Under the pieces are notes generated by a model that saw nothing but the letters and a program-made list of their open reading frames with translations, did no database searches and was not told the DNA's origin. A DNA stretch of 64,000 bases, from positions 32,001-96,000 of the forward strand of contig CAVVUS010000040.1 in assembly GCA_963751345.1 (NCBI GenBank). Direction: 5' to 3'. Positions within the stretch are counted from its first letter, which is position 1. Every line of letters begins with the position of its first letter. The position numbers and the translations under genes are program-made. The stretch is from an uncultured Chloroflexia bacterium (GTDB lineage: Bacteria > Chloroflexota > Anaerolineae > B4-G1 > SLSP01). Positions 31,118-54,313 of this stretch are shown here, piece after piece.

Positions 31118-32309
31118 TCAGTTCGCGGCCGCTGGTTCTGGTGCCGACCATAGCAGATTACCAGTGGCGAAATCGAAGGCCTGAATACGTTCCTGGACCA
31201 AGATGGGCATGGTGTACAGCCGTTGTTCGTCTGCCACAAGGTCACCTGGTAGACGCCCCGGATTGTCGGGATGCGTTCCCCAGTTCTGATCCAGTGTGCC
31301 CGTCGCCGTATCTGATCGCGTAAACGAGACCTTTTTCATAGCCCGCGACGTATAACAAGGTGCCGTCGGGGTTCAACGCGGCGCGACCATGAACGACGTC
31401 TCCCACTGCAACCGGTGCATTCCAGACCATCGTCTGCGTCGCGACATCGACTGCATAGACGTTACCGCTCACATCAGCAAAATAGAGCACGCCGTTGTCC
31501 AGCACCGGCGTCGCCCAGAGCCAATCACTGGCATCGAAGGTCCACGCGATCTCGTGCTTGGCAATGTCGACGCGATAGAGATGGGAGGCAAAGTCGCCCA
31601 GCCAGAGATCACCGTCGGCGTAGACCGGCGTCATGGCGATGGCGCCATCGAACTCCAAGCGCCAAAGCTCAGCCCCGGTCGCCATGTCGAGAGCATAGAG
31701 ACGGTGGTCCAGGGAGGCGACATAGGCAACACCGTCGATGACAACGGGGGTCGCCCACACACGGTCGTGTGTTGCGAATTGCCAGACCTCGGTCCCGTCC
31801 TCCAGGTTGAGTGCGTAGACTTTCCCATCACCGTTGCCGATGACAAAAAGCCCGTTGGCCACCGCGCCGGAGCCCACATACTGGCCGCCCGCCCCTGGGA
31901 AACTCCACAGCTCATCGGGGACCTCGGTTGCCGAGGTTCCAAGCTTGAGCGCATAGACAGTGTGGTCTGAAAACCCGGCGACCAACAGTAATCCGTTGTC
32001 ACCGAAGTCGGGAGCCAGCACCGGCGTGGAATAGAACGGTCCCACGCCCTTTTCCACAGCCGTGGGGAAGCTCCAATAGAGTTTGCCGGTTTCGGCATTC
32101 AGCGCCTCAATTTGCTCCAAGTCGGCCGCGTACAGCGTACCATCCACTGAGATTAGGCCGGGCCAACTCGTTTGACGGAGTCCGCCGGAACATCCCGTCA
32201 GTACAACCGCCAGCAGAACGACTGCCAGCAGCACATGCAATCCCCGCCGCGACTTGCCGGCGAAACGGGACATAAAACGGCGGTCAGAATGACTCCGCCA
32301 ACTTGCCAT
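31118..32309 (-). CDS. PQQ-like/BamB-like beta-propeller lipoprotein; frameshift near 31315
   Basis: Lipobox LTGC; repeated YALD..TG..LW blades; AGGAGG RBS. Confidence 0.85.
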
Positions 32310-50679: not shown

Positions 50680-50905
50680 AGGGCAGCTCCTTCTATGGTT
50701 GATGACGGAACGTCGAGTGCGACCGCGCGGTTGCCGTCGCACATACTATTGACGTCCGCCACCGCTGCAGGGTTCCCTTTGTCGAGCGGAAGCACGCACA
50801 GGCCCTGCGAAGGTCGGGCCCGCGCTTGCTGGCGGATATGGCTGAGGAAGCAACAGCGCCTTGCCTACGAAGCGCGATGCCAACCTTCACAAGGCCCTCG
50901 TGAGG

Positions 50906-51627
50906 CTAAACCCCGCGGAGTGCGACGTGGTCGATCCAGCGGCTGGCGCAGGCAGCCATATCCAGCAGCTCAGACGTCGGATAGGGGGCGGCACCTTCCA
51001 GGGCGGGATCGAGAGTGCGTATGCCACGGAACTGCTGCAGCACGTACGAGACTGACTTCCGATCCCCGCACTCAGCCAGCCACTGCGCGATGGCCTCGAC
51101 ATCGTCGCCGTCCAGGAGGCCCGGGACGACAGTCGTGCGGAACTCTACTGTGACGCCGCTCCGGCAGAGAAGGTCAACCGACGCCGCCACTTGGCCGACA
51201 TCCACGGACTCGACGTCCGGAGAGACGCGAATACTTAGTCCGGGGCGCTTTCACGTCCATCGCCACGTAGTCTACGACGCCGGTGTTGAGGAGGTCTGCC
51301 AGGCGATCGGGATGCGTGCCGTTGGTATCGAGCTTGACCGCCACACCCCGGGCACGCGCCGCCGACAGGAACGCGGGGAGCCCCTGCTGCAACAGAGGCT
51401 CCCCGCCGGTCACGACGATGCCGGTCACCTTGCCTGCCCGCCGCGTGAGGAAAGCCAAGACCTCCTCCGGATCAACGGCGGGCAGCGAATGAGGCCTGCA
51501 ACACCAGGTCGGCATTGTGGCACATAGGACATCGGAAGTCACACCCCCCTGTGAAGAGAACCGTGGCGATGTGATCGGGAAAATCGATCAGCGACGTCCG
51601 CGCCCAGCCTCGGAGGTCGATCTCCAA
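50906..51627 (-). CDS. nrdG: Anaerobic RNR activating enzyme (radical SAM); frameshifted
   Basis: SLIDFP..GCDFRCPMCHN, TGGEPL, KLDTNG, EFRTTVVP. Confidence 0.88.
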
Positions 51628-51672
51628 GGCTGGGACTCTTGAGGCTTCGAGCTCGACGTGACTTGTAGACCT

Positions 51673-51702
51673 GAGATCCTTCGCCTGCGGCTCAGGATGA
51701 CA
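51673..51702. repeat. REP-like element GAGATCCTTCGCCTGCGGCTCAGGATGACA
   Basis: Imperfect hairpin (ATCCT..AGGAT); partial second copy at 43732. Confidence 0.75.
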
Positions 51703-51717
51703 ATTCAACATGCAGTC

Positions 51718-51897
51718 CTAACTGACAGGCAGCTTCTCGTCTACTTTGAAGGCCTTCCGCTCCACGAACTCCTGGCGCTTGCCCTGGTTCCACGCCTGGA
51801 CGGGGCGCAGGTATCCCACCACTCGCGAGTAGACCTCGCAGGGTACCTTGAGTTCGACGTTCTCCCGCTCGGTTATCGGTTGCTTGTTCTCCGCCAT
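51718..51897 (-). CDS. Stand-alone 59-aa NrdD glycyl-radical domain
   Basis: Manual translation MAENKQPITERENVELKVPCEVYSRVVGYLRPVQAWNQGKRQEFVERKAFKVDEKLPVS*; own AGGGGG RBS; shorter than any ORF in the track. Confidence 0.88.
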   Translation of the reverse strand: MAENKQPITERENVELKVPCEVYSRVVGYLRPVQAWNQGKRQEFVERKAFKVDEKLPVS

Positions 51898-51945
51898 TTG
51901 GATCCCCCCTGTTGTGTATCGAATTCAGAAACGCCTAATCGCTGG

Positions 51946-53979
51946 TCAACCTTCCGGCGCCGCCGGTCGACCATATTGCGCCAACTGCTCCTCGGTATGT
52001 TCGTAGGGGCAATACGTGTGCTCCCCCGCGATGTAGCCGTGGATCGGGCAGACGCTGAAGGTCGGCGTCAGCGTGTAATAGGGCAGCCGGTAATTCTCGG
52101 CCACGGTACGCACGAGACGCCTTGCCTGTTGCCAATCGTCGATCTGTTCACCGAGGAAGATGTGCAGCACGGTGCCCCCCGTGTAGAGCGTCTGGAGCTC
52201 GTCCTGATGGTCCAGCACCTCAAAGAGATCATCGCTGAAATCCACGGGCAGATGCGTCGAGTTCGTATAGTAGGGTGAGTCCGGGGTGCCCGCTGTGGCA
52301 ATCTCGGGATAGCGGGCTTTGTCCGTGCGCGCCAACCGGAAGGTAGCGCCCTCGGCAGGCGTGGCCTCGAGGTTATATAGGTTCCCTGTCTGCTCCTGGA
52401 AGCGCGCCAACACCTCTTGCATGAACTGCAGCGTACGGATGGCGAAAGCTTGACCATCCGGATGGTCGATCCCAACGCCCAGGAAGTTCTGGCATGCCTC
52501 GTTCATGCCATTGAGCCCTACAGTCGAGAAGTGGTTGCTCCAATAATGGCCGGTGCTCGCCTTCACGTTGCGCAGGTAGTGCTGGCTGTAGGGATAAAGC
52601 CCACGTTCCGTCAAGGACTCCAGCATCTTGCGCTTGATCTCCAGGCTGGTCTTCGCGACATCCATCAGATGCTCCAGATGGTCGCGGAAATCGCGCTCGT
52701 TCCTGGCAGTGTACCCCAGCCGCGCCATATTGATCGTGACGACGCCCACCGAGCCGGTGAGCGGTGCAGCCGCGAAGAGGCCCCCGGTTCGCTTCCGCAG
52801 CTCACGGTTGTCCAGCCGTAGGCGGCAGCACATACTTCGCGCATCCTCGGCGCTCATATCGCTGTTGATAAAGTTCGCGAAGTAGGGAATCCCATATCGG
52901 GCGGTCATCGCCCAGATCGGCGCAAGCTCGGAGTTGTCCCAATCGAAATCAGGCGTGATGTTGTACGTGGGGATCGGGAATGTGAAGACACGCCCCTGTG
53001 CATCGCCATCCAGCATCACCTCGGCGAAAGCACGGTTGATCAGATCCATCTCCGGCTGGAAGTCCCCGTAGACCGCTTCCTTTGGCTCACCGCCCACGAT
53101 CACCGGTTCGCTGGACAACGTGCTGGGCGGCGTCAGGTCCATGGTGATATTGGTGAACGGTGTCTGGAAGCCCACACGAGTGGGCACGTTGATGTTGAAG
53201 ACAAACTCCTGAAGTGCCTGCTTCACCTGCGTGAAATTCAGGCTGTCATACCTGACAAAGGGCGCCAATAGTGTGTCGAAGTTGGAGACGGCCACGGCCC
53301 CCGCCGACTCCCCCTGTAGCGTGTAGAAGAAGTTGACCAGTTGCCCCAACGCCGTACGCAAGTGTCGCGGGGGCTTGCTCTGCACCTTAGCAGGTACACC
53401 GCCGAAGCCCTGTTCGAGGAGATCCAGCAGGTCCCATCCGCAGCAATAGACGGAGAGCATACCCAAGTCGTGAACGTGGAGGTCTGCACTGGTATGCGCA
53501 GCCTGTACTTCCGGGGGATAAATGCGATGCAGCCAATAACGTGCTGCGATGGATGAGGCCACATAGAAGTTGAGTCCCTGCAGCGAGTAGTTCATGTTGC
53601 TGTTCTCGTTGACCCGCCAATCCGACCGCTGCAGGTAGTCATCGACCAGCTTCTCAGAATCCAGCAGCATCCGGTGGGTCTCCCGCGCCTGCGCTCGCTG
53701 CTGACGGTAGAGAATATAAGCCTTGGCAATCCGTGGATTGCCCGATTTGACCAGCACCTCCTCAACGACATCCTGGATATCTTCGACGTGCGGCGGCAGA
53801 CCGCTGCCGTTGATCCGCTCCTCCATTAAGCCGGTCACAGCCCACGAGAGCGTCTCAGCCCACGTGCGCCCTACCCCATTGCCCGAAGCGCGTGCCGCAG
53901 CGTAGATCGCCTCCTCGATCCGCTTTCGATCGAACGGCACAACCGCCCCGTCTCGCTTAACCACCCTTTCGACCGCCAT
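51946..53979 (-). CDS. nrdD: Class III ribonucleoside-triphosphate reductase with ATP cone, lacking the C-terminal Gly-radical loop
   Basis: VVKRDG ATP cone, YCCGW, FTFPIPT, SMCCRL, EATPAEG, YTGGT, CPIHGY..CP; no RVxGY; AAAGGAG RBS. Confidence 0.93.
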   Translation of the reverse strand: MAVERVVKRDGAVVPFDRKRIEEAIYAAARASGNGVGRTWAETLSWAVTGLMEERINGSGLPPHVEDIQDVVEEVLVKSGNPRIAKAYILYRQQRAQARETHRMLLDSEKLVDDYLQRSDWRVNENSNMNYSLQGLNFYVASSIAARYWLHRIYPPEVQAAHTSADLHVHDLGMLSVYCCGWDLLDLLEQGFGGVPAKVQSKPPRHLRTALGQLVNFFYTLQGESAGAVAVSNFDTLLAPFVRYDSLNFTQVKQALQEFVFNINVPTRVGFQTPFTNITMDLTPPSTLSSEPVIVGGEPKEAVYGDFQPEMDLINRAFAEVMLDGDAQGRVFTFPIPTYNITPDFDWDNSELAPIWAMTARYGIPYFANFINSDMSAEDARSMCCRLRLDNRELRKRTGGLFAAAPLTGSVGVVTINMARLGYTARNERDFRDHLEHLMDVAKTSLEIKRKMLESLTERGLYPYSQHYLRNVKASTGHYWSNHFSTVGLNGMNEACQNFLGVGIDHPDGQAFAIRTLQFMQEVLARFQEQTGNLYNLEATPAEGATFRLARTDKARYPEIATAGTPDSPYYTNSTHLPVDFSDDLFEVLDHQDELQTLYTGGTVLHIFLGEQIDDWQQARRLVRTVAENYRLPYYTLTPTFSVCPIHGYIAGEHTYCPYEHTEEQLAQYGRPAAPEG

Positions 53980-54284: not shown

Positions 54285-54313
54285 ACTATAGCACCGAAGC
54301 TGCCCTTTGTCAA
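54285..54313 (-). promoter_or_regulatory. Promoter of the nrdD operon
   Basis: TTGACA-17-TATAGT with TGn extended -10. Confidence 0.75.

Follow-up and report, generated by a model that had tools for sequence, protein, structure and literature searches.

Genomic evidence for a naturally split class III ribonucleotide reductase whose glycyl-radical loop is encoded by a separate small gene

The DNA analysed here, a 64,000-nucleotide (nt) stretch of contig CAVVUS010000040.1 from an uncultured Chloroflexia bacterium (forward-strand positions 32,001 to 96,000; hereafter the window), very probably encodes a naturally split class III (anaerobic) ribonucleotide reductase. The catalytic subunit, NrdD, would be assembled from two polypeptides, encoded in an operon that consists of the nrdD body, a small gene and nrdG. 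In this division of labour, a 677-residue body would contribute the ATP-cone, the barrel and the finger-loop cysteines, and a 59-residue protein would contribute the glycyl-radical loop (Gly28, in RVVGY). Genome comparisons show that the two genes are distinct, each with a translation start of its own, that they are inherited together and that purifying selection acts on them across an order of Anaerolineae and several other phyla.

On the minus strand, the NrdD body is followed, in order, by a 48-nt spacer, a 59-codon open reading frame (ORF) and nrdG, the gene for the radical-S-adenosylmethionine (radical-SAM) activase (Table 1). An earlier note, drawn from the sequence of the window, had described an NrdD with an ATP cone, the motif SMCCRL and a CPIHGY..CPYEH stretch, ending at 51946 before the RVxGY loop, and, past a 48-nt gap, a separate ORF with its own ribosome-binding site, ATG and stop. 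All of these motifs were located, as were the AGGGGGG that sits 8 nt ahead of the ATG of the small ORF, the ATG itself and its TAG stop. The same note placed nrdG next in line, which is correct as to position, directly downstream, whereas the gene is broken into three frames in the assembly.

The NrdD body matches positions 1–532 of the 562 positions of the Pfam NRDD profile (PF13597; E 3.8e-174). Its residues are numbered here by the 708-residue maximal ORF; 31 is to be subtracted for the likely ATG start, which has AAAGGAG upstream of it and agrees with the coordinates of the earlier note. Among solved chains, T. maritima NrdD (4coi) is the closest; its residues 107–604 align with query residues 194–685. 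The finger loop is of the double-cysteine MCCR class described in PMC9669993, and its residues M414, C415, C416, R417 and L418 are invariant across 53 aligned bodies (one row containing a stop codon was removed), as are C675, H678 and C688 of the Cys/His metal-site stretch. Fused relatives have CPKC at the place of CPYEH, the second cysteine of CPKC being replaced here. The RVxGY glycyl-radical loop is absent from the body polypeptide and sits on the separate ORF, past two stop codons. The source genome contains one NrdD body, without a radical loop of its own, and one copy of the peptide gene.

The product of the small ORF, KVPCEVYSRVVGYLRPVQAWN, consists of a variable N-terminal extension (residues 1–17) and an invariant core, PCEVYSRVVGYLRP. 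It matches positions 532–562 of the NRDD profile (E 5.6e-10) and aligns with residues 610–643 of T. maritima NrdD, RIVGY loop included. In a Pfam search of the peptide (E up to 0.01), PF13597 was the sole family, with no match to PF01228 (Gly_radical). Residues P19, C20, E21, Y23, S24, R25, G28, Y29, R31 and P32 are invariant in 54 aligned sequences, and Gly28 is the predicted radical glycine. The core is under purifying selection, with a median ratio of nonsynonymous to synonymous substitution rates (dN/dS) of 0.107 among 34 distinct 36-codon cores (279 of 561 pairs with usable dS below 3); compared to the closest relative, dN is 0.043 and dS is 0.535.

Table 1. Features of the split nrdD locus and its surroundings, in window positions. 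Residue numbers of the body follow the 708-residue maximal ORF.
Feature	Positions	Strand	Detail
NrdD body	51946..53979	minus	677 aa from ATG 53979; TGA stop 51946-51948
Maximal NrdD ORF	54072 (GTG) to 51946	minus	708 aa
ATP-cone domain	53692..53967	minus	residues 36-127; PF03477, E 1.4e-20
Finger-loop motif SMCCRL	52819..52836	minus	residues 413-418; double-cysteine type
Cys/His metal-site stretch CPIHGY...CPYEH	51997..52050	minus	C675, H678, C688, H692
Body tail TEEQLAQYGRPAAPEG	51949..51996	minus	extension, not in canonical fused NrdD; co-fold predicts peptide contact
Spacer	51898..51945	minus	48 nt; second in-frame TGA 51925-51927; Shine-Dalgarno-like AGGGGGG
Glycyl-radical subunit gene (probable)	51718..51897	minus	59 aa; TAG stop 51718-51720
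Cys20 codon	51838..51840	minus	invariant in 54 aligned sequences; predicted against body C675 and C688
Gly28 codon	51814..51816	minus	predicted radical glycine in RVVGY; invariant in 54 aligned sequences
nrdG	50906..51711	minus	radical-SAM activase, motif CDFRCPMC; three frames in assembly
Sigma-70-like promoter match TTGACA-17-TATAGT	54285..54313	minus	11/12; upstream of nrdD; weak
Terminator-like hairpin	50856..50875	minus	directly 3' of nrdG; weak

The same division is found in related genomes. Forty-one were searched, those with named records being Chloroflexota, mostly Anaerolineae. Peptide matches occur in 28 of them, and all 29 matches lie in open frames of only 60–258 codons. The NRDD family was found in the same 28 genomes and in none other; the remaining 13 have neither piece. 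In the 28 genomes, matches to the body end at or before profile position 539 (of 562); a further, separate match, starting at position 527, 532 or 533 and running to 562, is present in every one of them. The core KVPCEVYSR[VI]VGYLRPVQAWN lies within a short ORF in all 20 loci that were compared, with NrdD directly upstream, stopping before the peptide core, in 18. The relative frame of the peptide ORF in these 18 adjacent loci is 0 in eight, 1 in five and 2 in five, and the gap between the two genes ranges from 15 to 793 nt. At nearly all split loci, five or six of the six positions of AGGAGG are matched just before the ATG. An nrdG-like ORF lies downstream in 19 of the 20 loci, intact in 17 and broken in the window and in L002; in L015 none was seen within the available stretch of the locus.

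These comparisons make it extremely improbable that a single NrdD chain has been broken by assembly or sequencing errors, or by nonsense mutations in a recent pseudogene. Such an artefact could be suspected from the adjoining nrdG, with two single-base insertions that short-read contigs lack, and from frame breaks in other few-contig assemblies (nrdG of L002, nrdD of L036). However, the split is present in all 28 relatives that hold NrdD, in three frames, with TAA, TGA and TAG stops, varied spacing and a Shine-Dalgarno site and ATG of its own, and independent contigs retain the stop and the small ORF. In addition, body and peptide together carry ∼33 residues more than the fused junction CPKCxxxQPCEVY. 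The earlier note had considered a single-indel artefact unlikely, citing extra residues on both sides of the gap, and had proposed a search for the order nrdD, small RVxGY ORF, nrdG in relatives. The extra residues, the order recovered in relatives, the purifying selection, the independent contigs and the passing co-fold described below all bear this judgement out.

The note had also proposed that reads be mapped across 51890–51960. In public runs, at most 0.23 of the sampled words matched, and the resulting contigs are of low depth (below 5). They cover 51671–51908, with 5 substitutions and no indel, and 51926–52188, with 7 substitutions and no indel, and none of the substitutions falls on the body stop codon or the ATG of the small ORF. 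The stop, the ATG and the small ORF are thus kept in independent DNA, while 51909–51925 is covered by no contig.

A second alternative is that one chain is made after all, by stop read-through, TGA recoding, ribosomal bypass of the 48-nt gap or protein splicing. In the window the body and the small ORF share one frame, with only two in-frame TGA codons between them, a point on which the earlier note is silent, and a shared frame is also seen in 8 of the 18 adjacent loci. The other 10 are in other frames, however, many bodies end in TAA, and the spacers reach 793 nt and even 5.8 kilobases (kb), with genes between. Neither product contains an intein or Hint domain (Pfam, E up to 0.01), the extensions are short and variable (16–23 and ∼17 residues), and no intron or recoding element was found with Rfam. 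The only Rfam matches were two sub-threshold ones inside nrdG (35.9 bits against a gathering threshold of 61, and 22.9 against 39), both of which we take as chance. We therefore regard a single chain as very improbable. Split intein, gene-60-type bypass and TGA recoding were each considered and dropped in view of the other frames, the TAA stops, the long spacers and the missing intein, Hint or recoding element.

In three relatives (G023, G026 and G029), the body and peptide genes are 5.4–5.8 kb apart, with unrelated genes between, which in G023 and G026 include those for a deoxynucleoside kinase, a metallo-beta-lactamase-fold protein, a methyltransferase and a ferredoxin-domain protein. A DJ-1/PfpI gene (193 residues, E 1.5e-48; L025:3189-3770) separates body and peptide gene at one locus and occupies a like place in L026. 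In G026 nrdG directly follows the displaced peptide gene, and in G023 it lies ∼1.4 kb downstream of the peptide gene, past another gene. This position of nrdG near displaced peptide genes fits a substrate-activase unit.

The nrdG product of the window matches PF04055 (E 1.5e-11) and contains the motif CDFRCPMC. Its frame changes, near 51497 and 51212, are each due to a single extra base. Short-read contigs omit one base at 51212 (one contig in each of two runs) and one at 51497 (one contig). Removal of both bases gives a single open frame of 267 codons, the product of which aligns without gaps over 237 residues (64.6% identity) with the intact NrdG of a relative. Because the short-read contigs lack both bases, the corrected frame is intact and similar breaks occur in other few-contig assemblies, the nrdG frameshifts are probably assembly errors. 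The NrdD split itself is not an error of this kind.

Among the other few-contig assemblies, nrdG is in two pieces in L002 and the NrdD body is in five pieces in L036, which fits the indel errors of long-read assemblies.

Were the nrdG frameshifts real, the locus could be non-functional in the source organism, with the reductase decaying and a class I/II-type enzyme taking over. We consider this unlikely. It would account for the two frameshifts and for the two PF02867 large-subunit genes elsewhere in the genome; against it, short-read contigs of near-identical DNA lack both extra bases, the corrected 267-residue frame aligns gap-free with an intact NrdG, and the body and peptide ORFs are themselves intact, the peptide core having changed far less at nonsynonymous than at synonymous sites (values above). 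As a separate observation, the two PF02867 matches (G000:C39:25823-27445 and G000:C32:6449-8071) lie on different contigs, in open frames of 907 codons each, and have near-equal scores; they could reflect gene duplication, a mixture of two strains in the bin or contamination, for which the figure given is 5.64%.

To place the split in a wider context, we examined the 80 best loci of a species-representative collection, picked by likeness to the query peptide, so that their proportions are no census. Of these, 34 are split, 43 are fused or run off a contig end with a fused-type junction, and 3 have a fused-type junction plus frame breaks further upstream. Ten of the 34 split loci are outside Chloroflexota. 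They include two isolates, Thermodesulfobacterium thermophilum DSM 1276 and T. hveragerdense DSM 12571; among the other bacteria are metagenome-assembled genomes (MAGs) of Thermodesulfobacteriota, Aquificales and Desulfurellales, Thermosulfidibacter, Hippea and one unclassified bacterium; the archaea, both DPANN, are Candidatus Iainarchaeum and a Woesearchaeota archaeon. In T. hveragerdense DSM 12571, the TAA stop of the body is followed by 24 nt containing AAGGAGG and then by the ATG of a 60-codon ORF. A sample of 301 genomes of the source phylum yielded 7 with a match, the source genome included; the other six comprise two short frames (133 and 163 codons), three fused forms (706–789 codons) and one marginal case. 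The protein database contains 114 clusters of NrdD-type tails of 38–104 residues, some on contigs longer than 100 kb.

The break point is the same in all split forms. Fused relatives have the junction ...PTFSICPxHGY..EH..CPKCxxxQPCEVYSRVVGY, and the split always falls downstream of the second metal-site motif (the position of CPKC) and upstream of PCEVYSR. At that motif, most split forms read CPxxH instead of CPKC, and a conserved HT(E/P)EELA(R/Q)(F/Y)G tail comes next; the N-terminal extension of the peptide is variable (∼6–31 residues). Two fused Anaerolineae sequences show these same alterations yet are unbroken: L044, which has CPREH, reads CPREHSAADLGRFG..., then a linker of ∼40 residues and then ...KKIPCEVYSR, and L083 reads CPHEHPPEVTAAYGNQVPCEVYSR.

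A quick maximum-likelihood tree was built from 56 bodies (21 split, 35 fused), with the region after PTFS(I/V)C removed and 25 loci omitted whose bodies were incomplete, lay in several frames or probably contained inteins. The 14 split rows of Anaerolineae form one clade, with a Shimodaira–Hasegawa-like approximate likelihood ratio test (SH-aLRT) support of 99, whose sister is the fused L044 (99). Separate split clades are formed by a Thermodesulfobacteriota/Aquificota group (99) and by the two DPANN archaea (100). The split label requires four changes by parsimony, of which at least two are forced by well-supported (starred) branches. Given that the unbroken forms L044 and L083 already show these alterations, that L044 groups next to the split clade as its sister and that the tree contains several split changes, the sequences indicate that the linker insertion came first and that breaks inside the linker arose or reversed more than once.

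Some observations on individual relatives stand apart from this argument. In L064 (a Desulfurellales MAG) and L080 (Hippea sp.), the split body keeps CPIC, and its tail (KEEKLEEIEREIQRLKRQLE...) and the N-terminus of the peptide (ILKRIKELEKLKKEV...) are both charged and heptad-like; these segments might be helices that pair as a coiled-coil tether. The NrdD bodies of L021, L027 and L084, and those at G023:C94:9155-13198, G026:C111:60072-63533 and G007:C358, are interrupted in frame by ∼900 nt or more, giving two matches in one frame within open frames of 1078–1360 codons. The interruptions are probably inteins. The peptide is matched once in 27 of the 28 relatives that have it; in the remaining one, a second, more divergent match (G006:C193:3218-3328; 59% identity, open frame of 154 codons) lies on another contig and may be an extra copy. 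Among viruses, archaeal virus ANMV-1 (KP703175.1; L110:2180-2614) has a 144-codon ORF annotated as anaerobic ribonucleoside triphosphate reductase, in which the match is confined to the radical-loop core (71% over residues 20–50). The NrdD of Methanobacterium virus PhiF1, in contrast, is full-length (596 codons).

Body residues 140–708 were co-folded with the peptide and a zinc ion in three runs, alongside three controls. The scores were 0.83, 0.79 and 0.83, compared to 0.00 for the best control. As a yardstick, 116 of 157 solved complexes attain that mark, whereas only 2 of 215 mismatched pairs do so. Between runs, at least 86% of the contacts recur, with a peptide pLDDT (predicted local distance difference test) of at least 69. 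Predicted contacts involve peptide residues 14–31, 35, 37–43 and 46–52 and body residues 671–677, 684–688, 692, 696–697 and 700–704, among others, and the lowest-error pairs include C20–C675 and C20–C688. The peptide therefore docks on the body in the model, as the earlier note had proposed to check, and the two pieces fit together like a normal NrdD, a result that speaks of likeness rather than of binding.

In the predicted complex, the peptide would add a β-strand to the C-terminal hairpin of the body (671–677, 684–688), and the split-specific body tail (692–704) would lie over the peptide as a clamp. Cys20, placed beside Cys675 and Cys688, may complete the Cys/His metal site across two chains, and Gly28 is predicted to reach the finger loop. 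By the established chemistry of NrdD and NrdG, NrdG with S-adenosylmethionine would abstract a hydrogen from Gly28, the docked loop would hand the radical to the finger-loop cysteine, and O2 would cut the small chain only, at the radical glycine. A fresh peptide could then take the place of the cleaved one.

The body lacks a radical loop of its own and, for this reason, the peptide appears to be an obligate subunit and not, strictly speaking, a spare; that the peptide gene is present in one copy also tempers the analogy with the GrcA/YfiD proteins discussed below. Exchange of the peptide after O2 damage, which the earlier note had proposed with GrcA/YfiD as its analogue, would be a plausible corollary of a non-covalent radical subunit. 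A more ambitious proposal, which we put forward tentatively and do not regard as the probable outcome, is a diffusible radical cartridge: NrdG would charge the peptide off the enzyme, with no domain having to flip from the barrel, and the peptide would dock through strand pairing and the shared Cys/His site and be swapped after O2 cleavage or loss of the radical. The peptide could just as well be a permanent subunit, held by the predicted strand pairing and by a metal site that the two chains may share.

A permanent subunit would be expected if the split were a neutral accident of no benefit. In that case, the radical loop would have become separable once the linker had been inserted, the linker would then have acquired a stop and a start, and the outcome would be an obligate, permanently bound peptide that is never exchanged. 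We give this explanation a little under an even chance. It agrees with the existence of fused forms with the same linker (L044, L083), with the single peptide gene in the source genome and the single match in nearly every relative, and with the predicted hold on the peptide by strand pairing, body tail and possibly a shared metal site. On the other hand, the same junction has been split or rejoined at least twice, or four times by parsimony, which hints at an advantage without proving one, and nrdG accompanies the displaced peptide gene in G026, directly, and in G023, at the greater distance given above.

Several points weigh against a split reductase working as two chains in the source organism. 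The two-chain enzyme is deduced from genes and from structure prediction. The shared frame of the two ORFs in the window would, by itself, allow read-through, and no short-read contig bridges 51909–51925 or spans the whole locus. The two frameshifts of nrdG in the assembly would, if real, leave the system dead in this organism, and the contigs without the extra bases are only 95–99% identical, at a depth below 5. The co-fold pass may reflect memory of solved single-chain NrdD structures, showing likeness and not binding of this pair, and the shared metal site is a prediction from modelled contacts. Finally, a PF02867 class I/II-type reductase is present in every genome checked (the source and four from other phyla), so that in none of them is the split enzyme the sole reductase.

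The surroundings of the operon add little. The scan of promoters gave one site, compared to a mean of 1.1 in shuffled sequences, and that of terminators gave one hairpin, compared to a mean of 2.6; both are at chance level.

The two-chain enzyme is closely related to the single-chain NrdD/NrdG systems (T. maritima 4COI/4U3E, phage T4 1H78, P. copri 8P23), with which it has in common the Pfam family, ATP-cone, barrel, double-cysteine finger loop, RVxGY loop and adjacent radical-SAM activase. It differs in that the loop is on its own 59-residue chain, CPYEH replaces the second CxxC and ∼33 extra residues are present at the break. GrcA/YfiD of E. coli and Y06I of phage T4 are described as autonomous glycyl-radical cofactors for pyruvate formate-lyase (PMC8683613, PMC12288474, PMC13450708), and are likewise small free-standing glycyl-radical-loop proteins, presumably charged by the cognate activase. 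PMC8683613 gives only YfiD and Y06I as validated and raises spare parts for other classes as a mere possibility, and in a 2026 review such proteins are ascribed to formate lyases alone. In contrast to GrcA/YfiD, the peptide belongs to PF13597 rather than PF01228, its partner lacks a radical domain of its own, and its target would be a reductase, not a formate lyase.

Split reductases of other kinds have been reported. NrdJa/NrdJb of Pseudomonas aeruginosa is a split class II reductase (PMC4520616), in which the catalytic subunit is likewise encoded by two adjacent genes. It differs in being of class II and using adenosylcobalamin, with no protein radical store and another break point, and neither of its two parts serves as a small carrier of the radical. 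Phage cases include nrdA-a/nrdA-b of Aeromonas phage Aeh1 and nrdD genes with introns, inteins or fragmentation in 6 phages (PMC3653736). There too the genes are in pieces and an active enzyme is possible (Aeh1, class Ia), but the breaks are due to mobile elements or to fragmentation in single genomes; here, no mobile element is present, the split is conserved across phyla and the radical loop is exactly isolated. In the literature covered, which excludes most subscription journals, we came across no account of a cellular class III reductase whose radical loop resides on a small protein of its own. Thus, a two-gene class III reductase, conserved in many microbes, seems to be undescribed.

As read from the genes, the split is real, conserved and recurrent, and represents a two-chain version of a known enzyme. 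In published descriptions, a glycyl-radical enzyme is one polypeptide that includes its radical glycine. With the radical on a 59-residue protein, that part can be made, labelled, mutated and added back separately, which renders several questions testable: whether the activase acts on a free or a docked radical domain, how the loop is held in the barrel, and whether O2 damage is repaired by exchange. The presence of the split in cultured Thermodesulfobacterium puts experimental material at hand. Where annotation pipelines and family surveys filter by length, the small gene will be missed or the NrdD called truncated. If the cartridge proposal is true, anaerobes at oxic-anoxic boundaries would pay 59 rather than ∼740 residues for each oxygen hit, and reductase activity could be set by the supply of peptide. 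The enzyme would then be the first glycyl-radical enzyme with a separate, obligate and replaceable radical store, and could represent a living intermediate toward spare parts of the GrcA type.

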